NCBI GenBank assembly: GCA_964430475.1
Contig: CAYSEQ010000002.1
Coordinates: 71,706-135,705 of the forward strand
Reading direction: 5' to 3'
Source of the DNA: an uncultured Gammaproteobacteria bacterium
GTDB taxonomy: Bacteria > Patescibacteriota > Microgenomatia > UBA8517
Length of the DNA stretch: 64,000 nt
This document shows positions 15,715-42,322 of the stretch, piece after piece. The first letter of the stretch is position 1, and each line of letters opens with the position of its first letter. A program made the translations under genes and the position numbers. The notes beneath the pieces were generated by a model. The model made no database searches. It was given only the letters and a program-made list of their open reading frames with translations, and was not told the origin of the DNA.

Positions 15715-15802
15715 GATTGCTTATTTAAGATATTTTTGTTGTAGTAAAAGTGTCAGTTGATCCTTTTATAAATTTTAAGTAGTGAGCTTATTTTTACTGC
15801 TT

Positions 15803-16798
15803 ATGAATTACTTACTTTCACAGGAAGTACTTGAGAGGATAAAGAAATCTCAAAAGATTTTATTAAACTGTCATCGCAACCCTGATCCTGACTCAATTGG
15901 TTGTGCATTGTCTATGTATGATGTTTTGGAAGGGATGGGTAAGGATGTTTCGATTTTATGTCCAAGTAAAAATTTACCTAAAGTATTGAATTTTTTAAAA
16001 AATTTCGAAAAGATTCAAGATGGTGTGGATTTCTCGTCATTTAATTTTTCAGAATTCGACCTTTTTATTGTCATGGATTCATCAAGTTGGGATATTGTTT
16101 CTGGCCTGAAAGATTTCAAAAAACCGGATATAGAAACGATAGTCATAGATCATCATGATACCAATGAAAGTTTTGGAGATTTAAATATTGTCGATCCTAA
16201 GTTAACCTCAAACGCAGAACTTCTTTATTTAATTTTTGAAGATTGGGGTGTGGAATTAAACAAATTTATAGCAGATTGTTTATTGTGCGGAATCCTGGGT
16301 GATACCGGTGTTTTTAGGTATCCCGGTGCAAATCAAAAAGCCTTAAGAATAGCAGCTAATCTTATTGACATAGGTGCAGATAAAGATTTGATAGTTTTTC
16401 GTCTTTTCCGTTCCGAGCCTTTTAATTTATTTAAGTTTTATTCTGTGGTTTTGAAGAATATGAAGATAGAAAAGCCTGAAAGGTTTGTTTGGTCTGCTAT
16501 CCCTCATAAAATATATAAAAGGTTAAATCCTCCTGTAAATGCGCGAGAGTCTTCTGCGAGTCTTTTTTTTCAGGAGGTTGAGGGCACGGATTTTGGAATT
16601 GTTATAGTGGAAGAGGAACAAAGAAAAGTTTGGATTTCATTTCGTTCAAGAACAGGATTTGATACTTCTTTATTGGCAAAGAAGTTAGGTGGAGGAGGAC
16701 ATATATATGCATCAGGAGCAAAGCTTGAGGGTTTACCTTTCAATAAGGCGTTGAGAAAAATTCTTCATATCGTGAAAAAACATGTCAGAAGTCTTTAA
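15803..16798 (+). CDS. nrnA: DHH/DHHA1 phosphoesterase, NrnA-type oligoribonuclease/pAp phosphatase
   Basis: HRNPDPDSIGC, DHH motif IDHHD and DHHA1 motif GGGGH. ATG at 15803; the ORF track begins at GTG 15782. Confidence 0.85.
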   Translation: MNYLLSQEVLERIKKSQKILLNCHRNPDPDSIGCALSMYDVLEGMGKDVSILCPSKNLPKVLNFLKNFEKIQDGVDFSSFNFSEFDLFIVMDSSSWDIVSGLKDFKKPDIETIVIDHHDTNESFGDLNIVDPKLTSNAELLYLIFEDWGVELNKFIADCLLCGILGDTGVFRYPGANQKALRIAANLIDIGADKDLIVFRLFRSEPFNLFKFYSVVLKNMKIEKPERFVWSAIPHKIYKRLNPPVNARESSASLFFQEVEGTDFGIVIVEEEQRKVWISFRSRTGFDTSLLAKKLGGGGHIYASGAKLEGLPFNKALRKILHIVKKHVRSL

Positions 16799-19901: not shown

Positions 19902-20681
19902 ATGAAAGATATATTTTTATCCGTGATAATTCCTTGCTATAACGAGAGTGAAAATCTTGAAAGAGGGGTTCTTGAAGATGTGTATAAGTTTTTGAAAACA
20001 AAAGATTTTGGTTGGGAGGTAATAATTTCTGATGATGGGTCAAACGATAAAAGCCGAGAGATTATTAAGAGTAAAATTAAAAATTTGAATAACTTTAGGC
20101 TTTTAGAAAATCCTCATGGAGGAAAACCTTGGGCACTTTTTTATGGTATAAATGAAGCAAAGGGAAGATTTATTTTATTTAGTGATATGGACCAATCTAC
20201 CCCCATCAATGAGCTAGACAAACTCCTTCCTTTCATAGGAAATAATGTTGGAGCAGTCATCGGTTCAAGGGGATTGGTCAGAAAAAATTATCCATTTTAT
20301 AGGAAATTAGGCTCTATAGTTTTTACAACATTTCGTCGACTCATTTTGCTTCCTGAAATCTATGATACACAGTGTGGATTTAAACTCTTTAGAAAGGAAG
20401 TAGTGAAGAAAGGATTTTCTAGACTTGAATTTTTCAGAAGAAAAGAGGAAGCGAAGGGTTGGAAGGTTACTTCCTATGATGTTGAACTTTTGCATATTAT
20501 AAAAAAAATGGGTTATGAGATTGAGGAAGTGCCTGTTAAATGGGAGGATGTTGATATAAGTAAAACTAAAGGTGCTTCTTTTAAAAGATATTTAAGGGAG
20601 TCCTTAGATATGCTGAACCAAATTGTAAGAGTTAAGTTGAATGAAATTAAGGGCGTTTATGACAATGTTCTTAAGGGTTGA
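19902..20681 (+). CDS. GT2 polyprenol-phosphate glycosyltransferase (DPM-synthase-like)
   Basis: SVIIPCYNESENL...VIISDDGSNDKS...FSDMDQS. Confidence 0.8.
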   Translation: MKDIFLSVIIPCYNESENLERGVLEDVYKFLKTKDFGWEVIISDDGSNDKSREIIKSKIKNLNNFRLLENPHGGKPWALFYGINEAKGRFILFSDMDQSTPINELDKLLPFIGNNVGAVIGSRGLVRKNYPFYRKLGSIVFTTFRRLILLPEIYDTQCGFKLFRKEVVKKGFSRLEFFRRKEEAKGWKVTSYDVELLHIIKKMGYEIEEVPVKWEDVDISKTKGASFKRYLRESLDMLNQIVRVKLNEIKGVYDNVLKG

Positions 20682-20730
20682 TTTTAGGCTACATATAAAA
20701 ATTTTTTGGTAATTGAAACAAAGCCAGGTC

Positions 20731-22305
20731 ATGTTTAATGAATTTTGGAAAAGGCATCTAAAAACTTTTATTCTGGGATTTGGAATTTTGGTTTTGGCTT
20801 TCTTTTTAAGGGTCAAAAATCTGACAATTTTGCCTGTTTTTAATGACGAGGCTATTTATATTCGTTGGGCACAAATAATGAAAAATGAGCCAACTCTCCG
20901 TTTCTTGCCTCTTTCGGATGGTAAACAGCCCCTTTTTATGTGGTCAATGATTCCTCTTTTCAAGGTTTTTTCCGATCCTCTTGTGGCTGGAAGAACTCTT
21001 TCTGTCTTAACTGGTTTAGTATCCTTGGCTTCAGTATTTATATTAACCTTTATTCTTTTTAGATCCACGAATAAAGCACTGATTGCAAGTAGTATGTATG
21101 CTTTATCTCCATTTGCTTTATTTTTTGACCGTTTAGCGTTGGTAGACTCTATGCTGACTATGTTTGGGATTCTTAGTGTTATTTTTGCGATTCTAGCGGT
21201 TAAAAAGGTAAGGCTTGATTGTGCAATGTTATCAGGATTTTTTTTAGGAGGTGCCTTGCTAACTAAATCCCCTGGAATTTTTTTTGCTTTACTTTTGCCT
21301 TCGACATTAATTCTTAGCGATTGGCCAAAAAATGTAAAGAAAAGTTTTAACAAGCTAAGCGTTTTTGTTTTTCTATTTACCTTTACATATTTAATAGCGT
21401 TTGGTCTTTACAATATTTTAAGGCTAGGTCCTAATTTCCACATGATTGCAATAAGGAATAAAGATTATGTGTTCCCTTTAAGTCACATCTGGGAGAACCC
21501 GAAAGATCCTTTTATTTTTCATATTAACGAGATTGTTCAGTGGTTGTGGTTTTTGGGTCCTTCTTTCTTGATTTTTATGCTTATTATTGGAGTAATTAGA
21601 GGATTTAATAGTTTTAAGAAAGAGACTTTAGTAATGTTTATCTTTGCTTTTTTCCCACTTTTTGTTAATGCCATGTATGCGAAAGTTTTTACTGCAAGGT
21701 ATATTCTCTATACTCTTCCTTTTATTTTTATACTCGCATCGTTATTTTTCAGTGAGACTAAAGAAAAAAAAGCACCCACTTTCTACCTCGAAATCTTTCT
21801 TTTTGTAGCGTTCATTGCTCATGCTTTCTGGATGGATTTTCTTTTACTAAGTAATGTCCAAAAAGCCCCACTCCCAAGAAGTGAACGTAGTGGCTACTTG
21901 GAGGAATGGAGTTCAGGTTATGGTATCAAGGAAGTAGCAGATTTTTTGCGTGAAATCCAAGAAGAAAACCCAAATCAAAAAATAGTAGTTGGTACTGAAG
22001 GATATTTTGGCGTCTTGCCCGACGGACTTAAGATGTATTTGGAAGATTTGCCTGAAATCACTGTCGTTGGTGTGGGGCTGGATCTGAAAGAAATACCATT
22101 AAGTCTCGTGGAGTCAGAAAAATCCGGAAATAGAACATTTTTGGTCATTAACAAGTCTCGCTTAAAAGCCGATTTTAGGGATTTAAATCTTAACCTTATC
22201 TCGTCTTATCCAAAAGCTCTCAGGAGCGAGGGAACCCGAGAGTATAATTTGCTTGGTCCACAAGAGGTTCTTTATTTGTTTGAATTGAAAGATATTAAAA
22301 AATAA
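20731..22305 (+). CDS. GT-C membrane glycosyltransferase, ArnT-like
   Basis: VFNDEAIYIRWAQIM...GKQPLFMWS parallels the ArnT DExRYaE...EKPPLxYW motif. About 12 TM segments. ATG at 20731; the ORF track begins at TTG 20713. Confidence 0.65.
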   Translation: MFNEFWKRHLKTFILGFGILVLAFFLRVKNLTILPVFNDEAIYIRWAQIMKNEPTLRFLPLSDGKQPLFMWSMIPLFKVFSDPLVAGRTLSVLTGLVSLASVFILTFILFRSTNKALIASSMYALSPFALFFDRLALVDSMLTMFGILSVIFAILAVKKVRLDCAMLSGFFLGGALLTKSPGIFFALLLPSTLILSDWPKNVKKSFNKLSVFVFLFTFTYLIAFGLYNILRLGPNFHMIAIRNKDYVFPLSHIWENPKDPFIFHINEIVQWLWFLGPSFLIFMLIIGVIRGFNSFKKETLVMFIFAFFPLFVNAMYAKVFTARYILYTLPFIFILASLFFSETKEKKAPTFYLEIFLFVAFIAHAFWMDFLLLSNVQKAPLPRSERSGYLEEWSSGYGIKEVADFLREIQEENPNQKIVVGTEGYFGVLPDGLKMYLEDLPEITVVGVGLDLKEIPLSLVESEKSGNRTFLVINKSRLKADFRDLNLNLISSYPKALRSEGTREYNLLGPQEVLYLFELKDIKK

Positions 22306-22316
22306 AATAATCCTTG

Positions 22317-23045
22317 ATGAACAAGAAAATTCTTCTTTCCTTAATAATCCCAGCATACAATGAGGAAAAAATTATTAAAGATACCTTATCTAAGGTTATA
22401 AAATTTCTTGCTAAGAAAAATTATTCTTGGGAAGTTTTAGTAGTTGATGATGGAAGTACTGACAATACGGCCAAAATAGCTAAGGGTTTTTCTAAAAAAA
22501 AGGTAAGAGTTTTATCTTTTGTTAAAAATAAGGGTAAAGGAGCGGCGATAAGAGAAGGTGTTTTAGTCTCAAAAGGAGAATTTATAATTTTTATGGATGC
22601 TGATTTGTCAGTTCCCTTAACAAATATTGATAAATTTTTGGATGAATTCAAGAAAGAAGAAATAGTAATAGCTTCCCGCCGTGCTGAGGGTGCGAAAATA
22701 GTAGTCCATCAGCCTTGGTTACGAGAGAATTTGGGCAGGATACATACCTTTCTTTCGAGAGTTGTGACCGGAGTGAATATCTCAGATTTTACATGTGGTT
22801 TTAAGGGATTTACCAGGAATGCAGCACTCAAAATATTTACAAAAGCCATCATCGACCGCTGGGCTTATGATGACGAGATAATGTTTTTGGCAAAGAAATT
22901 TGGGTTTAGGATCAAGGAAGTTCCGGTAGAGTGGGAGAATAGGAAAGATACGCGTGTAAAATTTAAGGATGTCGTTTTTGGGACACCCAAGGATTTATTG
23001 ATGATAAAGTTAAATGATCTTTTGGGAATATATGCGAATAATTGA
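22317..23045 (+). CDS. GT2 polyprenol-phosphate glycosyltransferase (CsbB/GtrB-like)
   Basis: SLIIPAYNEEKII...VLVVDDGSTDNT...FMDADLS. Confidence 0.8.
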   Translation: MNKKILLSLIIPAYNEEKIIKDTLSKVIKFLAKKNYSWEVLVVDDGSTDNTAKIAKGFSKKKVRVLSFVKNKGKGAAIREGVLVSKGEFIIFMDADLSVPLTNIDKFLDEFKKEEIVIASRRAEGAKIVVHQPWLRENLGRIHTFLSRVVTGVNISDFTCGFKGFTRNAALKIFTKAIIDRWAYDDEIMFLAKKFGFRIKEVPVEWENRKDTRVKFKDVVFGTPKDLLMIKLNDLLGIYANN

Positions 23046-24723
23046 GAATAAAGAAAAAATTGGCTTTCTTGTGATACTACTTTTCTTGGTTTTTATTTCC
23101 TTAAAACCCCTAACAAAACCAGGATTTTTTCCAATACATGACGATGTGCAGGTAATGCGACTTTTAGGAATTGATAAATGTCTGAAAGATGGACAGTTTC
23201 CTTGTAGATGGGTTCCCGATATGGGATACGGATACGGTTATCCTCAGTTTAATTATTATTCACCATTACCTTATTACATCATGGAAATTTTTCATCTAAT
23301 AGGTTTTGGATTTTTGGATAGCATCAAAATCGGATTTGCCTTAGGCTCCCTCATTGGTATTTTGGGTATGTATTTGTTAGCTAACTCTTTGTGGGGAGGT
23401 TATTCCGGAATTTTAGCCTCTCTTCTTTATGCTTATTTACCATATAAGGCTGTCAATATCTATGTTCGAGGTTCCTTGGCTGAGCTTTGGGGTTTAGCTT
23501 TTTTCCCCCTCGTACTTTGGAGTGCTAAAAAGTTAATTGAATCAAGACAAAAGATATATATCTTATCATTTGCAATTTTCCTCTTTTTTCTTTTTACTTC
23601 TCACAATATTAGCGCATTTATTTTTCTCCCGGTAGTTTTTTTATGGATTTTTTTTCTTTTTTTTCGTTTAAGAGGTAGCAAGATTGAGAATTTAAAAATT
23701 ATTGGAATTAGGTTATTATTGGGATTCTTGTGGGCAGTGGGTTTGTCAGCCTTCTTTATCTTTCCATCATGGTTTGAGAAAGACCTTGTGCATTTAGAGA
23801 CAATACGAAGTGGGTACTTTAGTTTTTTCAACCACTTTGTTGGGATAAAACAACTCCTGTTTTCGAATTATTGGGGCTATGGTGTTTCAGAACCTGGCCA
23901 ATATGATGAAATATTGCTTTCAGTCGGATTTTGGTACTGGTTTCTGCCTTTAATTCCTTTATTTTTTTTCCTTATTAAAAAAAGAGCGGGGTTTATTGAG
24001 ATTGTTTTTTTTATCCTTTTAGGCTGGGCTTTTCTTTTTATGGTTCATCCACGCTCAGCAATTTTATGGGAAAAGATATCTTATCTTTCTTTTGTCCAAT
24101 TTCCCTGGAGATTTTTAGGACCCGCAGGATTTTGCTTTTCATTATCAGCCGCAGCATGTGGTAGTTGGTTTAAGGAGGGGAAGAAATTTTTTATGGTAAT
24201 GTTTTTACCAATTTCAATATTAATTTTAATCTTCTATTCAAGCTTTTTTAGACCGAGGGAAATTCTTAATATTTCCGACAAGGAGAAGTTTTCTGGTGAT
24301 GAGTGGTTAAAACAACAAACAATAAGCATATACGACTATCTACCAATTTATGTTGAAAAAGTTCCAGACACTCCGGCAAGTAGTGAACCTTTGGTGTTAA
24401 AGGGAAGTGTTGAAATTCTTAAAGTGGATAAGGGAAGCAATTGGATAAGGTGGAACCTTATGGTAAGAAGTGATAGCTCAAAAGTGCTATTGCCTATGTA
24501 TTATTTTCCAGATTTTACGGTAAAGTTGGATTCTGACGAATGGAACTTTAGTAGACCGAATGAGAATGGACTTGTAAGTGTTGAGATTCCTTTTGGTAAG
24601 CATGAGCTTATGGTTAAAATAGACGATACAAAAATTCGGAGATTTTCAAATCTTTTAAGCTTTGGAGCCGTGATGATGATTCCCATTTTTTTAAGGAAGT
24701 TGAAAAAAACCTATGAAACTTAA
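23014..24723 (+). CDS. YfhO-like GT-C membrane glycosyltransferase candidate (1 of 3 tandem paralogs)
   Basis: The N-loop HDDVQVMRL...DGQFPCRWVPDMGYGYGYPQFNYYSPLPYY is conserved in the next two genes. The C-terminal YYFPDFTVKLD...GKHELMVK resembles the YfhO-family C-terminal signature (about YYPGWKAYVDGK, recalled). Overlaps the upstream GT2 by about 30 nt. Confidence 0.55.
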   Translation: MIFWEYMRIIENKEKIGFLVILLFLVFISLKPLTKPGFFPIHDDVQVMRLLGIDKCLKDGQFPCRWVPDMGYGYGYPQFNYYSPLPYYIMEIFHLIGFGFLDSIKIGFALGSLIGILGMYLLANSLWGGYSGILASLLYAYLPYKAVNIYVRGSLAELWGLAFFPLVLWSAKKLIESRQKIYILSFAIFLFFLFTSHNISAFIFLPVVFLWIFFLFFRLRGSKIENLKIIGIRLLLGFLWAVGLSAFFIFPSWFEKDLVHLETIRSGYFSFFNHFVGIKQLLFSNYWGYGVSEPGQYDEILLSVGFWYWFLPLIPLFFFLIKKRAGFIEIVFFILLGWAFLFMVHPRSAILWEKISYLSFVQFPWRFLGPAGFCFSLSAAACGSWFKEGKKFFMVMFLPISILILIFYSSFFRPREILNISDKEKFSGDEWLKQQTISIYDYLPIYVEKVPDTPASSEPLVLKGSVEILKVDKGSNWIRWNLMVRSDSSKVLLPMYYFPDFTVKLDSDEWNFSRPNENGLVSVEIPFGKHELMVKIDDTKIRRFSNLLSFGAVMMIPIFLRKLKKTYET

Positions 24724-26389
24724 GGAATTTTTATTGATCTTAATCGCAAGTATACCGGCTGGATGGTATTTATTCGGACCGGGTTATTACAACATGCATG
24801 ATGACCTTCAGGTTATGAGGATATTTGAAATGGAGAAGTGTTTGAGAGATGGGCAGATCCCTTGCAGATGGTCGCCTGATATGGCTTATGGATATGGGCA
24901 GGCGATGTTTAATTTTTATAGCGCTTTTCCTTATTATTTTGGCGTTTTAATTAGGATATTAACTTTTCTTTCTATCATCGCTACGGTCAAATTTACCTTT
25001 TTCCTTTCAATTCTATTTTCCGGCCTTGGGATGTATCTTCTTGCAAGGGAGTTTTGGGGTCGTCTGGGTGGTTTTGTTTCCTCGGTTTTGTATATTTATG
25101 CGCCATATCATGCTTTAGATGTCTTTGTCAGGGGTGCGCTAGCTGAGAGTTGGGCGATAGCAATTCTGCCGTGGTTGTGGCTTTCTATATACAAACTAGT
25201 TAGAAACCCGAACTTTTTGAATGGGTGTTTTTTGGCATTGAATTTATTTCTTCTTCTTACGACACATAATGTTTCTACCTTAATTTACTTTCTTCCTTCA
25301 TTAGGATGGGGCCTTTTTTGGTTATTGCGAGAAAGAAAATTAAAAAGTTTTCTTTATGTTGGATTTTATGGAATTTTAGGTTTGGGCTTATCCGCGTTTT
25401 TTATTATACCTGCAATTTATGAGACAAGGTTTGTGCAAATTGATAACCTTAAAAAGGATTATTCTGATTATCACGCCCATTTTGTCTCACTTAATCAGCT
25501 CTTTTTTGAAAGAAAGTGGGGTGACGGCCCATCAATTTGGGGACCTGAAGACGACATTTCTTTTCAAATTGGCTGGCCACACTGGTGGATTGTAGCACCC
25601 GCCTTTATTTTTTCCATATGGTTTTTTTTAAGAAAAAAAAGATTTTTAGAACCCCTTTTGATTTTTTCGCTTATTTTTCTTTTCCTTTTGACTAGTTTTC
25701 TTACACACCCAAGATCTGTGTTTATTTGGGAGAAAGTCCCTTTAATGGCATTTGTTCAATTCCCTTGGCGTTTTTTGGCTCTTGTCATTTTTTCACTTTC
25801 TTTTTTGGGAGGCTTTCTTGTTTGGATTAAGTATAGAGGAAGAACTCTAGTTGCGCTTATATTGGTAATTCTTACCTTTCTTTTGAATATTTCTTATTTT
25901 AAACCCATACATTTCTCGCGCTTGGTGAAAGATGAGGATAAACTGACAGGTCTTGCTTTTGAACTCCAGCAAAAAGCCGCGATTGTTGATTATCTTCCGA
26001 AAACTGCGGAAGTAGTACCACCTGCACCCGCACCGGAAAGTCCCAATATCATTGAAGGCGATGGTCATGTTTGGGGTTTTTCAAAAGGTTCTAATCGTTT
26101 CAGTTTTGAGATAGAAATGTATAACGAAGGTGAGGTGGTTGTTCCAGTTATGTACTTTCCTGGTTGGATTGTAATTCTAGATTCAAATGAAGTTCCTTTA
26201 GAAATTCACGGTGCACATGGAGTAATCAAAGTCAAGGTTCCTCTGGGGAAGCATAGCGTTAGAGGTCGTTTTACCAACACGCCAATAAGAAGTTATGCCA
26301 ATGGAATTTCTCTTTTTTCTGCCGTGTTTCTATTTTCTCTAAGCCTTTTGAAATTAAGGGAAAGGAGTAAACTTTATAAAGATGATTGA
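24713..26389 (+). CDS. YfhO-like GT-C membrane glycosyltransferase candidate (2 of 3)
   Basis: HDDLQVMRIFEMEKCLRDGQIPCRWSPDMAYGYGQAMFNFYSAFPYY. C-terminus YFPGWIVILDSNEVPLE...GKHSV. Confidence 0.55.
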   Translation: MKLKEFLLILIASIPAGWYLFGPGYYNMHDDLQVMRIFEMEKCLRDGQIPCRWSPDMAYGYGQAMFNFYSAFPYYFGVLIRILTFLSIIATVKFTFFLSILFSGLGMYLLAREFWGRLGGFVSSVLYIYAPYHALDVFVRGALAESWAIAILPWLWLSIYKLVRNPNFLNGCFLALNLFLLLTTHNVSTLIYFLPSLGWGLFWLLRERKLKSFLYVGFYGILGLGLSAFFIIPAIYETRFVQIDNLKKDYSDYHAHFVSLNQLFFERKWGDGPSIWGPEDDISFQIGWPHWWIVAPAFIFSIWFFLRKKRFLEPLLIFSLIFLFLLTSFLTHPRSVFIWEKVPLMAFVQFPWRFLALVIFSLSFLGGFLVWIKYRGRTLVALILVILTFLLNISYFKPIHFSRLVKDEDKLTGLAFELQQKAAIVDYLPKTAEVVPPAPAPESPNIIEGDGHVWGFSKGSNRFSFEIEMYNEGEVVVPVMYFPGWIVILDSNEVPLEIHGAHGVIKVKVPLGKHSVRGRFTNTPIRSYANGISLFSAVFLFSLSLLKLRERSKLYKDD

Positions 26390-28076
26390 CCTTAAAAGAC
26401 ATAAGTTCTTTATTTCTATTTTCCTTCTTTCAATTCCGGCAATCTACTTTTTAATCCTTCCGGGCTTCTACGAGTCTTCTGACCTTCACCACTTAGCAGA
26501 TATTTATGAGATGTTCCGAGCAACTTCATCTGGTCAAATACCGCCTCGCTGGGGTCCTGACTTTAGCTTTGGATATGGATATCCTCTTTTTAATTTTTAT
26601 TATGTTTTACCTTTTTATTTAGGAGCTTTGTTTTTTGCCGTTTTAAAAAGTTTACAATTTAGTTTCGAGTTAATTTTTATAGTCAGTGTTCTTCTTTCGG
26701 TTTTCGGCATGTATCTTTTTTTAAGGGAATTTTTTAATACATGGGCAGCGATGGCAGGATCAATACTTTTCCTTTATACCCCATATAGGGCTGTCCAGAT
26801 TTATGTAAGGGGGGCGATGGGGGAAGCGTTAGCTTTGTCTTTTCTCCCCTTTGTTTTCTGGGCCACTTTTAGACTATTAAAAAAATTTCATTGGAATTTT
26901 GTAGTTATATTAGCCTGTATTTTGGCACTTTTAATTCTTTCCCACAATTATTTTTGGGCCCTAACCCTTCCTTTTTTGATCTTTTTTGTATTTATTTTTA
27001 TGAATAAAAAAGATGTCAAAGTTAGCCTTATTTCTTTTGCTATAAGCCTATTTTTGGGCCTTGGTTTGACTTCATATTGGTGGTTACCTGCTATAATTGA
27101 ACAAAGACTTCTTTCTTCTAAAACACCATTTCCCTTGTATGATCATTTTCCTTTTCTTAGGCAATTAATTTTGCCTTCTTGGGGATATGGTGCCTCAGTT
27201 TGGGGTCCTCAAGATGGCCTTTCTTTTCAGGTTGGTGTTATGAATTGGTTGGTATTTTTGCTTTTTTGTGTTTTATTCCTAGTGAAAATGTCAAAAAAAG
27301 AAAACAAACACATAGCATTATTTATCTTTTCTTTATCGGGATTTATTTTAAGTATCTTTTTTATGAACATTCGCTCTTATCCAATCTGGAGGCTAATTCC
27401 CTTTCATGATTTTGTCCAATTTCCTTGGAGACTTCTTTCTTTCACTACATTTTTTACGAGTGTTATGGCGGCAATCTTGGTTGAGAGTTTTAAAAGCGCC
27501 TGGAAATTAGCTTGCGTGATTATTATTTTCGGGAGTATATCTTTGACCTTGAATTATTTCAGGCCCAGTCAAATTTTTTATAAAGGAGACGATGAGTATT
27601 TAGCAAGACTTTTCGCAAACAGGAGTCTGGGTGGAGAAAAAAAGGAGGTTTCGCAGGAATACTTGAACTGGAGTGAAGATTATCTTTTATTGCCTCATTG
27701 GGTTGGTGAAAGGCCGAAAGGTTTACCCTCTGCAAAGATTGAATCTAAAAAAGCAAGTATTGAAAGTATTCAGGAGATTTCAGCGGTAAAGTATAAGGTA
27801 GAAATTTTTTCCCAGGAAGACACAATTTTGACTTTTAACAATTATTACTTTCCTGGTTGGTTTGCGATGTTAGATGGTAAAAACAAAGAGATAAAGATCG
27901 GGAGACCCTATGGTCAAATTGAAGTGAATGTTCCTCCGGGGAGACATTCAATAGTATTTTATTGGGCTGAAACTAATTTAAGGAGATTTGCAGATTTGGT
28001 AAGTTTTCTTTCCTTTTTCTTCCTTTTGATGGTTTTAAAAACAAAAGGCAAGTGTTTGAAGCTTTTGATTAAATGA
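26382..28076 (+). CDS. YfhO-like GT-C membrane glycosyltransferase candidate (3 of 3)
   Basis: GQIPPRWGPDFSFGYGYPLFNFYYVLPFY. C-terminus YFPGWFAMLDGKNKEIK...GRHSI. Confidence 0.55.
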   Translation: MIDLKRHKFFISIFLLSIPAIYFLILPGFYESSDLHHLADIYEMFRATSSGQIPPRWGPDFSFGYGYPLFNFYYVLPFYLGALFFAVLKSLQFSFELIFIVSVLLSVFGMYLFLREFFNTWAAMAGSILFLYTPYRAVQIYVRGAMGEALALSFLPFVFWATFRLLKKFHWNFVVILACILALLILSHNYFWALTLPFLIFFVFIFMNKKDVKVSLISFAISLFLGLGLTSYWWLPAIIEQRLLSSKTPFPLYDHFPFLRQLILPSWGYGASVWGPQDGLSFQVGVMNWLVFLLFCVLFLVKMSKKENKHIALFIFSLSGFILSIFFMNIRSYPIWRLIPFHDFVQFPWRLLSFTTFFTSVMAAILVESFKSAWKLACVIIIFGSISLTLNYFRPSQIFYKGDDEYLARLFANRSLGGEKKEVSQEYLNWSEDYLLLPHWVGERPKGLPSAKIESKKASIESIQEISAVKYKVEIFSQEDTILTFNNYYFPGWFAMLDGKNKEIKIGRPYGQIEVNVPPGRHSIVFYWAETNLRRFADLVSFLSFFFLLMVLKTKGKCLKLLIK

Positions 28077-29428
28077 ATCTGGTAAAAATTTACAAAAAGC
28101 GATTTTTATTTTTTTTAGTCATTCTAATTGGTTTTTTGTTAAGGATATATCTAACCCGATTCGGTAATTTTGGAGATGTAAATGCTTTTGCAGAATGGGG
28201 AAAAAGATTTTGGGAATTAAATCCAAAAGATTTTTATTTTGACAAAAATTGGTATTATACATTTCCAACTTACCCACCCATTTCAATGTTTATGCTCGGG
28301 TTTCTATATTGGGTTTATGACAAGCGTTATATTTTGGCGGAAATACACAATGCGACAAAACTTGTTCCCTCAGCCTTTATTTTGTATTTCAATACACCTG
28401 TACCCAAAGACCCATTTTTAAATACCTTTGGTTATTATCTTCTTCTGAAACTGCCCGCAATAATTGCTGATATTTTTTTATCTATCCTTATTTACAATAT
28501 AGTTTTAACTTTAACAAGAAATAAAAAAAAGGCAATCTTCTCTTTTTTATTTTATATTCTTAGCCCAGTGAGTCTTTTTATATCTGGCGTTTGGGGACAA
28601 ACAGAAAGTTTAGTCTCTCTTTTTGGTTTGGTATCCTTTTTATTATTACTTAATAGGAGGTTTTCAATTTCACTTCTATCGATGTTTTTAAGCTTGTATT
28701 TGAAACCGACCTGGGTAGTATTTTTGCCTCTTTACCTTGCAATAATTTTTTACAACCGGCGAGAACTAACAAAGATTTTTATTGGAATTTTAATTTGCCT
28801 TGGGATGTTTTTTATTTCTACCTTTCCTTTTTCAGGGAAGGACATTTGGGGTTTTTCAAAAAAGGTGGTTTACGAAAACTTTAGTCCAGAAGCAAAGGGT
28901 GATACCAAGACTTCAACCTCACTTTTTAATTTCTATTCAATTTTTCTTCCCATAGATAAAGTGCTTTCTTCAGATAAAATCTTTAAGACGATATCGTTTA
29001 ACGATCTGAGTCTTATTTTTTATGTTCTTATCAACCTGATTGCTCTTAATATTCTTAGGAAAGAAAAAGAAATTTCACTAGCTACCCTTGTAAAACTTAT
29101 CTTCATCGTGGGTTTTGGGACTCCGTTGTTTTTAGTTGGTATGCTTGAAAGGTATCTTTTTATTGGATTTCTACCGATGATTATTCTTGGATTTATGACC
29201 CCAAAGACATTAAAATATGTGGCAGTAATAAACACCATTTTCTTCTTGAACTTAATTTGGTCTTATTTTCGAAGAAGTTCCTCAGAAGTTGATTTATTGT
29301 TTACAGGTAATAATTTTTTGTTAATTAGACTTTTTTCTTTGATAAATACGCTCTTTTATCTTTTTTGGCTTAAAAAGATATTTCTAGAAAAGAAGTCTTG
29401 GCGACTAACTTTTAAAACACTAATTTGA
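28073..29428 (+). CDS. PIG-V/DUF2029-like GT-C membrane glycosyltransferase candidate
   Basis: ATGA overlap with the upstream gene. YYTFPTYPPISMF and ISGVWGQTESL motifs are shared with 44871 and 46191. About 10 TM segments. Confidence 0.45.
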   Translation: MNLVKIYKKRFLFFLVILIGFLLRIYLTRFGNFGDVNAFAEWGKRFWELNPKDFYFDKNWYYTFPTYPPISMFMLGFLYWVYDKRYILAEIHNATKLVPSAFILYFNTPVPKDPFLNTFGYYLLLKLPAIIADIFLSILIYNIVLTLTRNKKKAIFSFLFYILSPVSLFISGVWGQTESLVSLFGLVSFLLLLNRRFSISLLSMFLSLYLKPTWVVFLPLYLAIIFYNRRELTKIFIGILICLGMFFISTFPFSGKDIWGFSKKVVYENFSPEAKGDTKTSTSLFNFYSIFLPIDKVLSSDKIFKTISFNDLSLIFYVLINLIALNILRKEKEISLATLVKLIFIVGFGTPLFLVGMLERYLFIGFLPMIILGFMTPKTLKYVAVINTIFFLNLIWSYFRRSSSEVDLLFTGNNFLLIRLFSLINTLFYLFWLKKIFLEKKSWRLTFKTLI

Positions 29429-29437
29429 TTAACGACT

Positions 29438-30931
29438 ATGGCGAATATAAATTTTAATGACCACTTGGATTCTACTAACGAGATGACTTTAGAAATGGTA
29501 AAAATGCGTGCTCTAAAAGGTGTTTTAGTCTTAACAGGACGAACTTTCTTTTTAAATGCACTTTCATTTTTCGCAACACTATTGCTGACTATATTTCTTG
29601 AACCGAAAGACTTTGGGATTTTCTGGATAGTCTCAGCGGTTGTAAATTTTTTGGCTTATTTTTCAGATATAGGTCTTGCAGCTGCCTTGATTCAAAAAAG
29701 GAAAAGGGTTACTTATGAGGAGTTAAAGACTACTTTTACAATACAAGAAGGGTTGGTTCTTTCCCTTTCTTTAGGAGTTCTTGTTATAACCCCCTTTTTG
29801 CAGGAGCATTATCATTTGTCTAAAGAAGGAACGATGCTTCTTTGGGCACTTCTTTTTTCGTTTGTCTTATCATCGCTAAAGACCATTCCATCCGTACTTT
29901 TAGAAAGAGAGCTTAAATTTACGACGCTTGTAATTCCTCAAATTTTGGAAAATTTAAGCTACAATATCACCTCGGTTATTTTAGCTTGGAAGGGCTTCGG
30001 TATTAGTAGTTTTACATATGCGGTAGTTATACGCGGTGTAGTGGGATTAGCCTCAATGTATATCCTTAAGCCCTGGAGACCTGGGATTTCTTTGAATAGA
30101 AGTGCTTTAAAAAGACTTTTAAGTTTTGGCTTGCCTTATCAAGCCAACACCTTACTTGCGGTTATAAAAGATGATGGTATGACATTGGTGCTGGGTTCGA
30201 TTCTAGGTGCCAATGGCGTAGGTCTTTTGGGATGGGCCCAAAAATGGGCCTATATGCCCTTAAGGCTTTTTATGGATCATGTCTTAAAAGTCACCTTTCC
30301 AGCTTTTAGTAGAATTCAAGCTAAGAAAAAAGAATTAAGTTCAGCAGTTTCCCTATCCATCTTTTTTATTTGCTTTCTTGTATTTCCGACAACAGCAGGT
30401 CTTTTAGTGGTTGCACCTACTCTTATTGAGATTGTACCGCGTTATGAGAAGTGGAGGCCGGCTTTACTAGTCCTTAGTCTGGTGAGTGTCAACACATTTT
30501 TTGCTGCCTTTACCACACAACTTACCAATTTACTCAACGCTATCGGCAAAATTAGATTGACATTTAAGTTAATGTTGATGTGGACAATTTTAACCTGGAT
30601 CCTGGTTCCAACATTAGGAAAATTTTATAACCTCAACGGAGCAGCACTTGGCTATGCAATTGTTGGATTAAGTTCAGTGGTTGCGTTTTATGTATCTTAC
30701 AGAATCCTAAAATTTGATTTCTTGAAAAGTGTGGGTATTCCAGGAGTTGCAACCTTCATAATGGTGTTGGTTTTAATAGGAATTAAAACTTTTCTCAAAC
30801 CTAACTTTTTATCGGTAGTGATTATTTCAATTTCAGGCTTAATTATTTATCTTGGGGTTATGTATATTTTAGCTGGAAGTTTTTTTGTCAAAAACCTTAA
30901 GAAAGGATTGGATACCATTTTTCGTAAATGA
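29438..30931 (+). CDS. Wzx-like oligosaccharide/polysaccharide flippase (MOP superfamily, Polysacc_synt)
   Basis: 497 aa with about 12-14 TM segments. The N-terminal cytoplasmic helix, IFWIVSAVVNFLAYFSDIGLAAALIQ and the central loop are consistent with the Polysacc_synt family. Confidence 0.7.
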   Translation: MANINFNDHLDSTNEMTLEMVKMRALKGVLVLTGRTFFLNALSFFATLLLTIFLEPKDFGIFWIVSAVVNFLAYFSDIGLAAALIQKRKRVTYEELKTTFTIQEGLVLSLSLGVLVITPFLQEHYHLSKEGTMLLWALLFSFVLSSLKTIPSVLLERELKFTTLVIPQILENLSYNITSVILAWKGFGISSFTYAVVIRGVVGLASMYILKPWRPGISLNRSALKRLLSFGLPYQANTLLAVIKDDGMTLVLGSILGANGVGLLGWAQKWAYMPLRLFMDHVLKVTFPAFSRIQAKKKELSSAVSLSIFFICFLVFPTTAGLLVVAPTLIEIVPRYEKWRPALLVLSLVSVNTFFAAFTTQLTNLLNAIGKIRLTFKLMLMWTILTWILVPTLGKFYNLNGAALGYAIVGLSSVVAFYVSYRILKFDFLKSVGIPGVATFIMVLVLIGIKTFLKPNFLSVVIISISGLIIYLGVMYILAGSFFVKNLKKGLDTIFRK

Positions 30932-30937
30932 TTCAGA

Positions 30938-32704
30938 ATGAAAGTTATTTTTAGAATACCTCATAACCTAAACATAAAAAACTTATACCTTATTTTGGTC
31001 TTCTTTCTCGCACTACTTCCCCGAGTATATAAACTGAATAAATTTCCTCCAAGTATGATACATGATGAATTAAATTATGTTATGAATGCTAAGTCGCTTT
31101 GGACAACCGGCAAAAACATTCCACTTACCGCGTCAGCGCTTTTTTCCTGGGGAGAGTCGGAATTTGATGTTGTAATTTCAGAATTGCCATCTTTGATAAT
31201 TGCACCTTGGGTAGGAATAAACGACCTAAGTCAGTTAAATGTAAGAATTTTCTATGCATTTTTATCCTCTTTATCAGTCGTTCTAATTTATTTGATAGTT
31301 GAGACTCTTTTAAACAAAGAAGTGGCTTTCTTCACGGGTTTTGTTGCTGCTTTTAATCCCTGGAGCATTCATATCGGACGAACCGCACTTGAAGTGAATT
31401 TTGCCATCTTTTTCTTTCTTTTGGGTACTCTACTTTTTTTGAGAAGTAAAACCTTAAAGACTTTGTTTGCGTTTCCATTTTTCTTGGCAGGATTTTTATC
31501 TTACTTAGGTGCAAAGCTACATTTTTTTCCATGGATAATGATCTTACTGATTTATAAATGGTTGGAATTAAAGGAAGAAAATAAAAAGAAAGGATACCTT
31601 TTGATCTTTGGCATTTTAAGTTTTGCGGTACTTGTTTTTTATACTCTAACTTTGTCTTTCCAACCCGCAGGTTCAAGAAAGGGTGAACTTACATTTTTTA
31701 ACGAAAGTTGGGCTTCGAAAATTGTGGACACGGAAAGGCGTTTAGCGATTCCAAACCAAGGATTAAGAATTTTTTCAAATAAATTAACAGTCACGCTAAA
31801 AAGAGCAGGCGATGTTTATCTGAAAGCTTTCTCAACCGTAGGTTTGTTCTCACGGGGTGAAACGGTTTCGGTATATTCTCTTTGGGAATACGGACAATTC
31901 CATTTTCTGGATTTTATTTTAATCTTGGTTGGATTTGTGGGCCTTTATTTTTTTAATCGTCGGATTTTTTGGTTGATATCGTTTCTGGTGCTTCTTGGAC
32001 CTTGGGTTTCGGCTATTGATCTGGTTGAGGAAACTTACGCGATTAGAGCCTTCCCTACTTATATTTTTTTGTGGGTATTTGCGGGTTTCGGATTTTGGTA
32101 CCTTTCAAAATCAAAAAGACAAAAATTAATTTTTAGTCTTATATTGATTTTGTATTTTTTCAGCATTGCCTATTTTATAAACCTTTATTTATATCGCTAT
32201 CCTATTTATTCTGCAGAACGCTGGTTTTTTAGCGAAAGAATTTTATCAAGTTATATCAAAAGGGTCTTGGCAAAATACCCCGGAACCAAGATTTATGTTT
32301 CTTCGGTTGAATCTCCAAAGATTGTCTTTGAGAATTTCCTATTTTATACAGGACTTTACAACACAAAAGATCAGGTAATTTATGCTAATTCTAGATTAAA
32401 AGATAAGGTATTTGGAATCGGGAATGTAACTTTTATGCATGGCTGTCCATTTGGGAGTGAAAAGGATATTAGCCCTGATTATGTGCTAATTTCACATCAA
32501 AGGTTTAAATGCCTTGAAGAAAGTCAAGAAAGAAGAGGAATCGTTGATCTTAAGGATGCAGGAACGGTGTTTGTAATAAGTGATGATAAGCTTTGTAGGG
32601 GCTTTGAGTTGCCAAGGTACTATAGACCAATGAATGATAAAATCTTTGATATAGAAAGTCTAAGTGATGAAGATTTTTGTAGGAATTGGATTGTAGCATT
32701 TTAG
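30938..32704 (+). CDS. ArnT/PMT_2-like GT-C glycosyltransferase, outlying member of the downstream 11-copy array family
   Basis: HDELNYVMNAKSLW.TGKN and NPWSIHIGRTALEVN match the family motifs DEAxxGYxAYS and SPWHIHFSRGAWEAN. Polytopic, with a C-terminal soluble domain. Confidence 0.6.
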   Translation: MKVIFRIPHNLNIKNLYLILVFFLALLPRVYKLNKFPPSMIHDELNYVMNAKSLWTTGKNIPLTASALFSWGESEFDVVISELPSLIIAPWVGINDLSQLNVRIFYAFLSSLSVVLIYLIVETLLNKEVAFFTGFVAAFNPWSIHIGRTALEVNFAIFFFLLGTLLFLRSKTLKTLFAFPFFLAGFLSYLGAKLHFFPWIMILLIYKWLELKEENKKKGYLLIFGILSFAVLVFYTLTLSFQPAGSRKGELTFFNESWASKIVDTERRLAIPNQGLRIFSNKLTVTLKRAGDVYLKAFSTVGLFSRGETVSVYSLWEYGQFHFLDFILILVGFVGLYFFNRRIFWLISFLVLLGPWVSAIDLVEETYAIRAFPTYIFLWVFAGFGFWYLSKSKRQKLIFSLILILYFFSIAYFINLYLYRYPIYSAERWFFSERILSSYIKRVLAKYPGTKIYVSSVESPKIVFENFLFYTGLYNTKDQVIYANSRLKDKVFGIGNVTFMHGCPFGSEKDISPDYVLISHQRFKCLEESQERRGIVDLKDAGTVFVISDDKLCRGFELPRYYRPMNDKIFDIESLSDEDFCRNWIVAF

Positions 32705-32712
32705 TAGAGCAT

Positions 32713-34437
32713 ATGTTAAAAAAAATTAAAGCTTTTCTACACATCAAAGAGAATTTTTGGCTTTTTCTTCTTATAATTTCCGGTTCTTTGACTTGGTCTT
32801 TAGTAATGTTTAAAAGCGGTCTTGTCTTTTCTTACGGTATGGGATTTTGGGGTCCTAATGCTCATGATGGTGTTTGGCATATTGCTTTGGCAAAAAGTTT
32901 AGCTAAGGGTTCATGGGAGATGCCGATTTTTGCTGGTGAAAAAATAAAAAATTATCACATCGGATTTGATCTTATTCTTGCAGTGATCCATAAAATAACA
33001 TTTATTCCAATACACAACCTTTATTTCCAAATTCTGCCCCCGATATTTAGCGTTTTAGTTGGTGTTCTCGTTTATCTTTTCGTCTATAGGTGGCAACGAT
33101 CTAAAATCAAGGCTTTTTGGTCTTTGTTTTTTGTTTATTTTGGAGGGAGTTGGGGTTGGGTTATAAGTTTGATAAGGAACGGGAGATTGGATGGTGAATC
33201 GATGTTTTGGTCTCAACAATCAATCTCTACCCTTCTTAATCCCCCCTTCGCCCTTTCTTTGATTCTAATTTTCTTAGGATTTCTGTGTTTAAAGATTGGC
33301 CTAGATAAGAGTGATGTTAAATTTTTGACTGTTGCAGGCTTCCTTTTCGGAATTCTTTCCCAGATTAAGGTGTATGCTGGAATACTCATCCTTCTTAGTC
33401 TTTTTTTGGGAGGAATTTATGACTTACTGAAGAAAAGGAGTACAAATCTTATCAAGGTGTTTACAAGTAGTTTGGTCGTTTCTATTTTGCTTTTCCCTTC
33501 GGTAGATTTGGAAGCTGAACAATTAGTAGTATTTAAACCGTTTTGGTTTTTGGAAACTATGATGCTTTTTCCTGACAGGTTGGGATGGACCAAGTTTGGC
33601 GAAGCAATGATTAACTATAAGCTTGGAGCGATTTGGAGTAAGGCAATTTTAGCTTATGTTTTAGCCCTTCTTATATTTTTAGTGGGAAACATGGGTACCA
33701 GGATAGTTTCTTTCTTCGGATTATTAAAATGGATATCGAGAGGAAAGCCTACCCCTTCCAACTACAAATACATCGATGTATTGGTAATTACGATGTTGGT
33801 TCTGGGGATTTTCTTTCCATTGATGTTTGTTCAGTCAGGAACGCCTTGGAATACTATCCAATTTTTTTATTATGCCTTAGTCTTTTCAGGGATTCTGGCG
33901 GGGATTGTGATGGGCGAGTCTATCCAACACTTACGGTCAAACCTAATGAAGTATTTTTTGGGTATTAGCATAATTTTTTTCACAATACCTACTACGGTTG
34001 GCACTTTATGGTTTCATTATTTACCCTCAAGACCACCCGCAAAGATTTCAAACGAGGAACTTGAGGCTCTAGAATTTCTTTCGAAAGAACCTGACGGAGT
34101 GGTTTTGACTTTGCCGTTTGATAAAAAATATTCTGATGCATGGGTAGTTCCGCCATTACCCATTTACCTTTACGAATCAACCGCGTATGTATCTGCATTT
34201 ACAGGGAAGGCAGTGTATTTTGAAGATGAAGTCAATTTGAGAATAATTGGTTATAATTTTGGGGAGAGGAGGAAAGGGGTCGAAGAATTTTTCTTAAATC
34301 CCAACGCTGATTTTCTGCGTGAGAACAAAATCACCTACATTTACATACCCAAAAATTTAATAAAAAACAGTTTAGAAAATATCGGATTAGAAAAAATTTT
34401 TGAGAATAAAGAAGTGGTCATCTATACTAACTTATAA
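32713..34437 (+). CDS. unknown polytopic membrane protein (candidate novel GT-C or polymerase/ligase-like)
   Basis: About 575 aa with at least 12 TM segments. Distinctive loop FWGPNAHDGVWHIALAKSL. No match to the other three families. ATG at 32713; the ORF track begins at TTG 32686. Confidence 0.4.
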   Translation: MLKKIKAFLHIKENFWLFLLIISGSLTWSLVMFKSGLVFSYGMGFWGPNAHDGVWHIALAKSLAKGSWEMPIFAGEKIKNYHIGFDLILAVIHKITFIPIHNLYFQILPPIFSVLVGVLVYLFVYRWQRSKIKAFWSLFFVYFGGSWGWVISLIRNGRLDGESMFWSQQSISTLLNPPFALSLILIFLGFLCLKIGLDKSDVKFLTVAGFLFGILSQIKVYAGILILLSLFLGGIYDLLKKRSTNLIKVFTSSLVVSILLFPSVDLEAEQLVVFKPFWFLETMMLFPDRLGWTKFGEAMINYKLGAIWSKAILAYVLALLIFLVGNMGTRIVSFFGLLKWISRGKPTPSNYKYIDVLVITMLVLGIFFPLMFVQSGTPWNTIQFFYYALVFSGILAGIVMGESIQHLRSNLMKYFLGISIIFFTIPTTVGTLWFHYLPSRPPAKISNEELEALEFLSKEPDGVVLTLPFDKKYSDAWVVPPLPIYLYESTAYVSAFTGKAVYFEDEVNLRIIGYNFGERRKGVEEFFLNPNADFLRENKITYIYIPKNLIKNSLENIGLEKIFENKEVVIYTNL

Positions 34438-42309: not shown

Positions 42310-42322
42310 GTATAACCTTTTT

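Follow-up and report, generated by a model that had tools for sequence, protein, structure and literature searches.

We suggest that the genes at positions 22317–28076 of the analysed window, which is the whole stretch of 64,000 nucleotides, form a glycosylation module in which a GT2 enzyme would load a sugar onto polyprenyl phosphate and three tandem GT-C membrane glycosyltransferases, here called A, B, and C, would add sugars to a surface glycan or glycoprotein and not to a teichoic acid. To this reading we assign a probability of roughly 60%.

The host is a candidate-phylum (Woesebacteria-like) bacterium, and all genes and motifs discussed here lie on the plus strand. The GT2 gene (GT2c, 22317–23045, open reading frame 22314/22317–23045) encodes a protein of 242 aa which matches PF00535 with 118 bits (E 5e-34) and is followed by A (23014–24723, 569 aa), B (24713–26389, 558 aa), and C (26382–28076, 564 aa). 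The successive overlaps between GT2c and A, A and B, B and C, and C and the next open reading frame amount to 32, 11, 8, and 4 nt. Hence a GT2 at 22317 followed by three overlapping genes of about 560 aa, as described in the original prediction, is a real arrangement of open reading frames. By BLASTP A and B share 37% identity (E 4e-103), B and C 31% (E 9e-73), and A and C 30% (E 9e-58), a paralogy which on these alignments is far beyond chance. Among the three copies C is the most divergent.

Common to A, B, and C are the motifs G-Q-[FI]-P-x-R-W-x-P-D, GYG..FN.Y, QFPWR, YFP[GD][WF], and G[KR]H. The N-terminal loop that had been proposed for all three copies is shared with respect to GQ(F/I)P.RW.PD and GYG..FN.Y, whereas HDD(V/L)QVMR is confined to A and B. 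In these two proteins HDD follows directly after the first membrane helix (A, aa 42–44, nt 23137–23145; B, aa 29–31, nt 24797–24805), and hhalign comparisons place it opposite the Asp that is invariant in the YfhO family. At the same site C reads SDLHHLAD, SDLHH (nt 26478–26492) replacing HDD, and the first Asp alone is invariant there; it is likewise invariant across 108 orthologs belonging to three orthogroups. The first extracytoplasmic loop thus carries an acidic motif as expected for GT-C enzymes (DXD, DDX, or similar), which is HDD in the first two copies and SD in C. A Cys pair of A and B is absent from C. The C-terminal signature YFP(G/D)W...G(K/R)H had also been claimed for every copy. 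In fact G[KR]H is present in all of them and YFPGW in B (nt 26153–26167) and C (nt 27846–27860), but A has YFPDF (nt 24502–24516). All three orthogroups keep the first Asp as well as the motifs PY.A.D.YVRGA..E, HN, QFPWRFL, and FPGW..G.H.

The best Pfam family for these proteins is PF10131 (PTPS_related), a multi-pass membrane family of unknown function in the GT-C clan CL0111 (PMC7801869). Its name, 6-pyruvoyl-tetrahydropterin synthase-related membrane protein, is historical, and there is no tie to pterin synthesis here. All 67 tested family members match PF10131 at E≤0.01, compared with 7 of 67 for YfhO (PF09586) and 2 of 67 for PMT_2. B (40.7 bits) and C (42.2 bits) exceed the gathering cutoff of 26.4 bits; A alone remains below it (20.3 bits), which has to be counted against our reading, as has the confinement of the matches to profile positions 1–313 of 621. 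The C-terminal half of A, B, and C resembles YfhO and not PF10131. Scoring with the Pfam YfhO profile, the check proposed in the original prediction, yielded no match at E≤0.01 for A and B and a marginal one for C (31.9 bits, cutoff 28.5), which is lower than the score of C on PF10131. Nevertheless, the proposed kinship to YfhO stands at the profile level. When the family is compared by hhalign with the YfhO family of the window itself, the membrane core aligns with a probability of 98.9% (E 1e-17) and the C-terminal 159 aa with 97.9% (E 4.7e-13, 102 columns), the latter match comprising a beta-sandwich with the YFPGW…G[KR]H motif and the last helix. The refuting outcome named in the original prediction, an alignment with PMT_2 instead, is not borne out, as hhalign matches the proteins less well to the window's own families of the PMT_2 type (85–95%). 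PMT_2 (PF13231) is not matched by A and B and is only the third-ranked family for C (26.4 bits, cutoff 26.1). On these sequence profiles A, B, and C are members of PF10131, a compact sister of YfhO which retains the membrane core, the beta-sandwich, and the terminal helix and is missing the large ectodomain.

The predicted structure agrees with this assignment. The AlphaFold2 model of B (pLDDT 93.1, pTM 0.93) was compared with the PDB by Foldseek, and the first 33 matches are all GT-C enzymes (probability 0.98–1.0, E from 2e-4), the best of them being AglB, STT3, AftD, ArnT, Emb, PglB, and Pmt4 with a probability of 1.0. The structural comparison with GT-C folds that had been proposed thus favours a GT-C fold, although the TMq values against the solved structures are moderate (0.34–0.44) and count against our reading. 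The ectodomain lies between the penultimate and the last helix, the same topology as in YfhO, and spans ∼125 aa (B residues ∼400–523) compared with ∼275 aa in the YfhO protein of the window. [quoted passage not shown]

The GT2c protein resembles, by sequence, a soluble GT-A enzyme of the polyprenyl-phosphate sugar synthase type. Among proteins of known structure it aligns with ArnC over residues 7–210, with PfDPMS over 6–162, and with GtrB over 2–132, so that the entire catalytic domain is matched, and its best NCBIfam matches (PgfS, ArnC, and PpgS) are partial and all far below the equivalog cutoffs. It ends at residue 242, compared with 322–374 aa for GtrB, ArnC, and DPMS, and no hydrophobic or transmembrane segment is predicted in it. 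[quoted passage not shown] In length as well as in architecture GT2c thus differs from GtrB and CsbB, and the designation as GtrB/CsbB-like can be kept for the GT-A domain but not for the missing helices. That a GT2 of the polyprenyl-phosphate sugar synthase type adjoins GT-C membrane transferases was nevertheless recognised correctly. Neither a small membrane protein that could pair with the soluble GT2 nor an initiating phosphoglycosyltransferase was found in the window, which also counts against our reading. GT2c is located immediately upstream of A solely in the five closest relatives (5 loci), and a role as dedicated donor synthase would thus be specific to that lineage. Elsewhere the paralogs come after a GT2–PMT_2 pair and not in a GT2–ABC arrangement. 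One database protein (P0380) is a fusion of a domain similar to GT2b and GT2c (39–40% identity) to a B-like GT-C.

In 54 Microgenomates loci compared for synteny, the core order is GT2, PMT_2, one to three PF10131 genes, flippase, oligosaccharyltransferase (OST)-like protein, and GT2/GT4 enzymes. A single copy is present in 27 loci, loci of the Shapirobacteria type have one copy, and 19 loci from Woese- and Daviesbacteria have three copies. In all 19 triple loci both the order A, B, C and the orthology at each position are kept, and the orthogroup of the first position (A) is monophyletic. Judged by this positional orthology, the triplication is ancient and conserved and not a local expansion.

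The four genes are part of a conserved island of ∼50 kb with at least 20 GT-C genes. Upstream of GT2c is a conserved pair consisting of a soluble GT2 similar to polyprenyl-phosphate sugar synthases (GT2b, 19902–20681) and a PMT_2-type GT-C (20713–22305), both assigned by Pfam and synteny; in most relatives the pair lies immediately before the PF10131 genes. Downstream of C follows a multi-pass membrane protein of 451 aa (28073–29428), which has no Pfam match of its own and is a paralog of the GT87-like open reading frame 44871–46166 (BLASTP E 4e-33); it is probably another GT-C. The next gene encodes a MOP/Wzx-type flippase (29438–30931; PF13440 172 bits, NCBIfam MOP flippase 139.7 bits), also found downstream of the PF10131 gene or genes in about 40 related loci, and as a guess we name it as a candidate for exporting a lipid-linked sugar or oligosaccharide. 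By synteny its conserved partner is an OST-like membrane protein (32686–34437, open reading frame of 583 aa, called gene product of 574 aa) which matches no Pfam or NCBIfam family and does not contain the WWDYG motif. Its AlphaFold2 model (pLDDT 87) matches STT3, AglB, and PglB in Foldseek at E 6e-10 to 3e-6 and TMq 0.47–0.54. Further downstream lies a clear YfhO-family GT-C of 810 aa (38340–40772; PF09586 93.8 bits, FYPGW at nt 40545–40559), the fourth and larger member already noticed, which indeed carries FYPGWKAFVNEKPV. Its C-terminus matches that of PgfM2 (NCBIfam); to A, B, and C it shows no BLASTP match but clear profile-level homology. A rhamnosyltransferase-like GT2 (42278–43156) is linked to the family by the gene order in relatives and by fusions: orthologs are found upstream of A in some Woesebacteria (loci L016, L024, and L025), and a domain similar to it (33–57% identity) is fused to an A-like GT-C in the database proteins P0371, P0374, P0395, and P0430. 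The conserved neighbours thus comprise the Wzx-type flippase, the OST-like GT-C, and five cytoplasmic GT2/GT4 enzymes, which argues for a pathway of a lipid-linked oligosaccharide or envelope polysaccharide and not of a teichoic acid.

From the family resemblances we propose that the soluble GT2 would move a sugar from a nucleotide sugar onto polyprenyl phosphate at the cytoplasmic face of the membrane, that the lipid-linked sugar would be flipped, possibly by the Wzx-type protein two genes downstream, and that A, B, and C would each transfer a sugar to an acceptor at the outer face by means of the acidic motif of loop 1. The three proteins represent old orthogroups with order and catalytic motifs kept, and most likely they are not redundant but serve distinct positions, linkages, or steps, three in all, in the same surface glycan or glycoprotein.

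Following the comparison with CsbB/YfhO in the original prediction, one could take the genes for a CsbB/YfhO system that uses C55-P-GlcNAc to decorate a polymer of the (lipo)teichoic-acid type; the prediction itself saw a puzzle in the teichoic acid. The puzzle is not real, since Ser/Thr-rich regions of proteins are further substrates of YfhO-family enzymes; moreover, GT-A/GT-C pairs act on rhamnose polysaccharides, for which PMT_2-type GT-C enzymes are used (PMC8035078; bioRxiv 10.1101/2024.05.05.592596). The profile-level homology to YfhO in core and C-terminal domain, the partial matches of the GT2 to PgfS-, ArnC-, and CsbB-type synthases, and the genuine YfhO gene in the same island speak for a system of this kind. 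But A and B do not match the YfhO profile and C does so marginally and less well than PF10131, the two membrane helices of CsbB are missing from the GT2, YfhO-family enzymes are not specific for teichoic acids, and neither LtaS, TagF, nor any other teichoic-acid gene is present among the open reading frames of at least 120 aa in the window, minus four short or overlapping ones. We consider a teichoic-acid acceptor very improbable. It is also rather unlikely, if somewhat less so, that A, B, and C use polyprenyl-diphosphate-linked oligosaccharides and move preassembled blocks as ligases, polymerases, or O-oligosaccharyltransferases. AglB, STT3, and PglB are among the top fold matches, the genes have as neighbours a Wzx-type flippase and, as is typical of block assembly, several GT2/GT4 enzymes of the cytoplasm, and the fused rhamnosyltransferase-like GT2 would act on a diphosphate-linked intermediate. 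Yet by sequence the family is nearest to YfhO, and the known YfhO members take single sugars linked to a monophosphate; a DPM1/ArnC-type GT2 next to or fused with the GT-C also speaks for donors of the monophosphate kind, and the OST-like protein at 32686–34437 is the better candidate for such a transfer.

More plausible than these two, though still unlikely, is that A, B, and C assemble into one hetero-oligomeric GT-C complex which serves a single polymer, like EmbA–EmbB or Pmt1–Pmt2. Tandem paralogous GT-C genes whose products form heterodimers are known, and EmbA–EmbB structures are among the fold matches; the order A, B, C is strictly kept, overlaps between stop and start codons favour co-expression in fixed stoichiometry, and some database proteins contain at least two family repeats per chain, for example, P0361 (1093 aa) and P0362 (1116 aa). 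However, all three copies have the full set of catalytic-core motifs, so that none looks like a non-catalytic partner, and the many lineages with a single copy manage without the others. Returning to separate transferases for a surface glycan or glycoprotein, we would tentatively go one step further, to an idea that on the present sequence data is unlikely to be right: the conserved Microgenomates island might encode a bacterial equivalent of the lipid-linked-oligosaccharide pathway of eukaryotes and archaea, with A, B, and C as lumenal elongases of the ALG3/9/12 type. If so, a lipid-linked glycan would be assembled by the GT2/GT4 enzymes of the cytoplasm and exported by the Wzx-type flippase, a series of GT-C enzymes with A, B, and C among them would lengthen it on the outer side of the membrane with polyprenyl-phosphate sugars from the DPM1-like soluble GT2s, and the STT3/PglB-like enzyme (32686–34437) would transfer the finished glycan en bloc to surface proteins.

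Compared with the YfhO family (YfhO of B. subtilis and S. aureus, PgtC2 of S. pyogenes, PgfM1 and PgfM2 of S. mutans), A, B, and C have the same GT-C core, the Asp opening extracytoplasmic loop 1, the G-x-x-P-x-W-x-P motif, an ectodomain before the last helix, a beta-sandwich end with the signature [FY][FY]PGW…G.H, and a GT2 sugar-lipid synthase as genomic partner. On the contrary, BLASTP similarity is lacking, A and B show no PF09586 match, their ectodomain of ∼125 aa contrasts with about 275–390 aa, an additional insertion of ∼33 aa in loop 1 of YfhO is absent, and the partner GT2 is devoid of membrane helices. The embCAB operon consists of tandem paralogous GT-C genes, and the present locus is similar to mycobacterial embCAB and the Aft/Mpt line in having three such genes; there, an envelope glycan is assembled on the outer side of the membrane by numerous GT-C enzymes, which draw on polyprenyl-phosphate sugars. 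The Emb proteins differ in their size of ∼1,100 aa, in their large carbohydrate-binding domains, and in the GT-C family to which they are assigned (GT53); the relationship is not detectable by sequence but at the level of the fold, Emb, AftA, AftB, and AftD being among the Foldseek matches. In the GacI/GacJ/GacK/GacL system of S. pyogenes, which glycosylates side chains, GacI is a GT-A without membrane helices, GacK the Wzx-type flippase, and GacL the GT-C (PMC8035078). GacI depends on GacJ, a small membrane protein of which no counterpart is seen here, and GacL is a single GT-C of the PMT_2 type in place of three. Nevertheless, both systems combine a helix-less GT-A, a Wzx-type flippase, and GT-C enzymes, and the target of the Gac system is a non-teichoic surface polysaccharide (PMC8035078).

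The GT2 gene and the three paralogs named in the original prediction form a real co-directional run of overlapping genes, as can be seen from the ORF list, and the mutual identity of the paralogs is 30–37%. On the forward strand the run comprises the glycosyltransferase gene GT2c (22314/22317–23045) and the GT-C paralogs A (23014–24723, 569 aa), B (24713–26389, 558 aa), and C (26382–28076, 564 aa), and the overlaps from GT2c through to the gene following C amount to 32, 11, 8, and 4 nt, the last being an ATGA junction. A and B are 37% identical (E 4e-103), B and C 31% (E 9e-73), and A and C 30% (E 9e-58). All three share G-Q-[FI]-P-x-R-W-x-P-D, GYG..FN.Y, QFPWR, and the C-terminal YFP[GD][WF]…G[KR]H. 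The observation was thus largely correct: most of the predicted N-terminal motifs are found in all three proteins, but HDD.QVMR is not present in C, which has SDLHHLAD, and the C-terminal motif YFP(G/D)W…G(K/R)H holds overall with the exception of A, which reads YFPDF. A Cys pair in loop 1 (KC…PCRW) occurs in A and B and is absent from C. The 810-aa ORF at 38340–40772, which had been regarded as a fourth member, does contain FYPGWKAFVNEKPV.

The three paralogs had been taken for YfhO proteins. On Pfam, A matches PF10131 (PTPS_related) alone, with 20.3 bits and thus under the cutoff of 26.4, B also matches PF10131 alone (40.7 bits), and C matches PF10131 (42.2 bits), YfhO (31.9 bits, cutoff 28.5), and PMT_2 (26.4 bits, cutoff 26.1), so that on the refutation test set in the original prediction the assignment to YfhO does not hold for A and B and is borderline for C. 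With 93.8 bits, the 810-aa protein matches YfhO solidly. Among 67 family members, that is the three window proteins and 64 B-type homologs from a search of 5.8 billion proteins, PF10131 is found in 67/67, YfhO in 7/67, and PMT_2 in 2/67. Membership in PMT_2, the alternative considered in the original prediction, is ruled out by these scans together with the profile comparison, as the A/B/C profile aligns with the window's PMT_2-type families with a probability of just 85–95% (E 5e-8 to 5e-6), weaker than with YfhO. A function as pterin synthase is likewise ruled out, since PTPS is a historical label and A, B, and C are GT-C proteins that cross the membrane several times. A, B, and C belong to the uncharacterised family PF10131, not to YfhO proper.

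PF10131 is assigned to the GT-C clan as a family of unknown function (PMC7801869). None of the three paralogs is covered by an NCBIfam model, sequence searches of the PDB with C alone, with the A/B/C family profile, and with the profile of the family of the 32686–34437 protein (see below) returned no relative, and no functional study turned up in our literature search, which covered PF10131/PTPS_related and GT-C enzymes of Patescibacteria or CPR. When searched against 1.84 billion cluster representatives (clusters at 50% identity), the A/B/C profile retrieved 18,670 at E<=1e-3, 13,411 at E<=1e-10, and 5,968 at E<=1e-30, none of these family clusters having an assigned function.

Nevertheless, kinship to YfhO as such is upheld. 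When the A/B/C profile is compared with that of the window's YfhO family (39 sequences), the membrane cores align with a probability of 98.9% (E 1e-17, 311 columns); HDD is placed on the invariant P-x-D of YfhO and DGQIPCRWSPD on K..PLWNP, with an extra insertion of ∼33 residues in loop 1 on the YfhO side. The last ∼100 residues alone, a stretch with the YFPGW…G.H motif as well as the terminal helix, align with 97.9% (E 4.7e-13). Given these core and C-terminal alignments, the most apt description of A, B, and C is that of a compact sister family to YfhO. For B, an AlphaFold2 model based on the alignment of 67 sequences (pLDDT 93.1, pTM 0.93) has a helical membrane core (3–396), short helices up to residue 421, a beta-sandwich (445–520), and a terminal helix (524–557). 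HDD follows TM1 directly and opens the first extracytoplasmic loop, the canonical place for catalysis in GT-C enzymes.

A scan with one genome per species yielded 54 loci; all whose record names are informative belong to the Microgenomates (Woese-, Davies-, and Shapirobacteria), and the titles of many others are generic or misleading. A close relative, GCA_900175145.1, has full synteny with the window. By annotating all 54 loci against the window proteins we obtained the conserved core order GT2a – PMT_2 … GT2b – PMT_2 – [PF10131 ×1–3] – MOP flippase – (32686-type protein) – GT2 – GT2 – GT2 – GT4 – GT2. Exactly three consecutive PF10131 copies are found in 19 loci and one copy in 27. The nearest neighbour of a copy among the other triple loci always occupies the same position (19/19 at each of the three), a neighbour-joining tree shows every positional group as monophyletic, and identity is 29–36% between the groups versus 43–47% within them. 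These data show that the triplication is ancient and order-preserving. A recent local gene amplification, by which the tandem would be explained as a young duplication, is ruled out by the monophyly of the orthogroups and by their low identity to each other. Single-copy forms lie at an equal distance from A (36%) and B (35%); C is more remote from them (28%). The loop-1 Asp, PY.A.D.YVRGA..E, HN, QFPWRFL, and FPGW..G.H are kept in all three groups, and therefore all three copies look catalytically competent. In the complete Woesebacteria chromosome CP066686.1 (L016), a YfhO gene separates the A ortholog from the B ortholog, and the set is preceded by two other GT2 types of the window, GT2_41398 and GT2_42278, rather than by GT2c. 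Thus, YfhO and PF10131 genes travel together and are rearranged between lineages.

GT2c is an unambiguous PF00535 protein on Pfam. Its longest sequence matches among solved structures are to ArnC (residues 7–210), the DPMS of P. furiosus (6–162), and GtrB (2–132), all polyprenyl-phosphate glycosyltransferases of 322–374 aa, and its best partial NCBIfam matches are PgfS, ArnC, and PpgS. As GT2c stops at residue 242 without any hydrophobic segment, it is a DPM1- or GacI-like soluble catalytic domain and not of the CsbB/GtrB type in architecture. Two more soluble GT2s of this kind, at 13361 (GT2a) and 19902 (GT2b, 19902–20681), each precede a PMT_2-type GT-C. A fourth GT2 (9508–10656, forward strand) carries a GtrA/DPMS transmembrane domain (PF04138) in the same chain; it is the window's only element of the GtrA type and a second candidate for lipid-sugar synthesis or flipping. 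GT2c is found directly upstream of A in the five closest loci only; elsewhere A is preceded by the GT2b–PMT_2 pair or, in some Woesebacteria (L016, L025), by a rhamnosyltransferase-like GT2.

Five of the best 150 proteins of the profile search have an N-terminal extension of ∼270 aa. In P0380 a GT2b/c-like domain (39–40% identity) is joined to a B-like GT-C, and in P0371, P0374, P0395, and P0430 a GT2_42278-like domain (33–57% identity) is joined to an A-like GT-C. The topology is compatible, with a cytoplasmic GT2 followed by TM1 going from inside to outside. These fusions give independent support for a functional coupling of cytoplasmic GT2s to the PF10131 GT-C family. The fused GT2s are either DPM1/GT2b-like or rhamnosyltransferase/GT2_42278-like, and an A-like ORF of 811 aa in locus L024 is among the fusions. 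Some other chains contain the family repeat two to six times (P0361, P0362, P0392, P0389). The GT2 fusions as well as these chains may be real or may be artefacts of gene calling.

The triplication is an old and conserved part of a much larger glycan-assembly island of ∼50 kb (13361–61723), which has at least 20 GT-C-type genes: 11 PMT/PMT_2 matches (seven at or above the Pfam gathering score and four below), three PMT/PMT_2 paralogs linked by BLAST, A, B, and C, one YfhO, and two GT87-like genes. In addition, it harbors two unassigned multi-pass proteins, ten GT2s, one GT4, one methyltransferase, and one MOP flippase. Nine PMT_2-type genes (30938, 43120, 47972, 49664 and 51457, both on the reverse strand, 54824, 56508, 58310, and 60053) form a paralog family with 23–38% identity. 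A DHH/DHHA1 phosphoesterase (15782–16798, forward) lies between GT-C genes, a position conserved in L002 and L006, and at the end of the GT-C array an FAD-dependent amine-oxidase/phytoene-desaturase-like oxidoreductase (61740–63032, forward; NCBIfam PRK07233, 383.7 bits, cutoff 252) overlaps the next GT2 gene (63029–63934). For the membrane ORFs left unannotated, no useful match came out of relaxed Pfam scans. As no initiating phosphoglycosyltransferase was found in the island, a 384-aa protein with ∼6 membrane segments and no Pfam match (11993–13147), which is encoded on the opposite strand upstream of GT2a and kept in at least eight related loci, is a putative candidate for a missing membrane step.

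The membrane protein at 32686–34437 (forward; ORF of 583 aa, called gene product of 574 aa) is a conserved partner of the MOP/Wzx flippase, which it adjoins in ∼40 related loci. It has no Pfam or NCBIfam match, and its 1,357 homologs in Patescibacteria are all labelled hypothetical. With its AlphaFold2 model (pLDDT 87) the best Foldseek matches are STT3, AglB, and PglB (E 6e-10 to 3e-6, TMq 0.47–0.54), followed by ArnT and AftA. The WWDYG motif is absent from the protein, and its loop 1 carries an invariant GPNGHDG.WH.

The GT-C-rich island and the flippase with its OST-like partner suggest a lipid-linked glycan pathway with extracytoplasmic steps run by many GT-C enzymes. A more unusual reading, in which an oligosaccharide pathway like that of the ER would end in an OST-like enzyme, we consider unlikely. 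GT2c–A–B–C itself combines a GT-A with GT-C enzymes into a unit for extracytoplasmic glycosylation. Fold, motifs, fusions, and synteny lead us to infer that a polyprenyl-phosphate sugar would be synthesized, then flipped, and finally transferred by the three specialised GT-C enzymes.

Bacteria of the candidate phyla radiation are mostly uncultured and their envelope chemistry is, to our knowledge, essentially unknown. Here, a Woesebacteria-like genome devotes ∼50 kb to extracytoplasmic, lipid-carrier-dependent glycosylation. The sister status to YfhO, the three ancient orthogroups, and the GT2 fusions of some organisms offer concrete targets for studies of CPR envelopes and for the biochemistry of PF10131, a very large family without assigned function.

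Compared with the CsbB/YfhO systems, the GT-A/GT-C unit and the relationship to YfhO stand, whereas the assignment to YfhO proper and the CsbB/GtrB architecture do not. GT2c lacks the two C-terminal membrane helices of CsbB and GtrB (PMC5836110). A, B, and C have the same membrane core, C-terminal sandwich, and anchor helix as YfhO but not its big ectodomain, the loop being ∼125 aa long versus ∼275 aa for the YfhO of the window and 389 aa for that of B. subtilis (PMC5836110). None of the window ORFs scanned encodes LtaS, TagF, or another teichoic-acid protein. LTA and WTA serve as acceptors for YfhO-family enzymes, as do Ser/Thr-rich protein regions, and rhamnose polysaccharides are decorated by related GT-A/GT-C systems (PMC8035078; bioRxiv 10.1101/2024.05.05.592596). 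Thus, the absence of teichoic acid in such bacteria is no contradiction, and the seeming paradox that an organism lacking teichoic acids should have a 'teichoic-acid enzyme' disappears.
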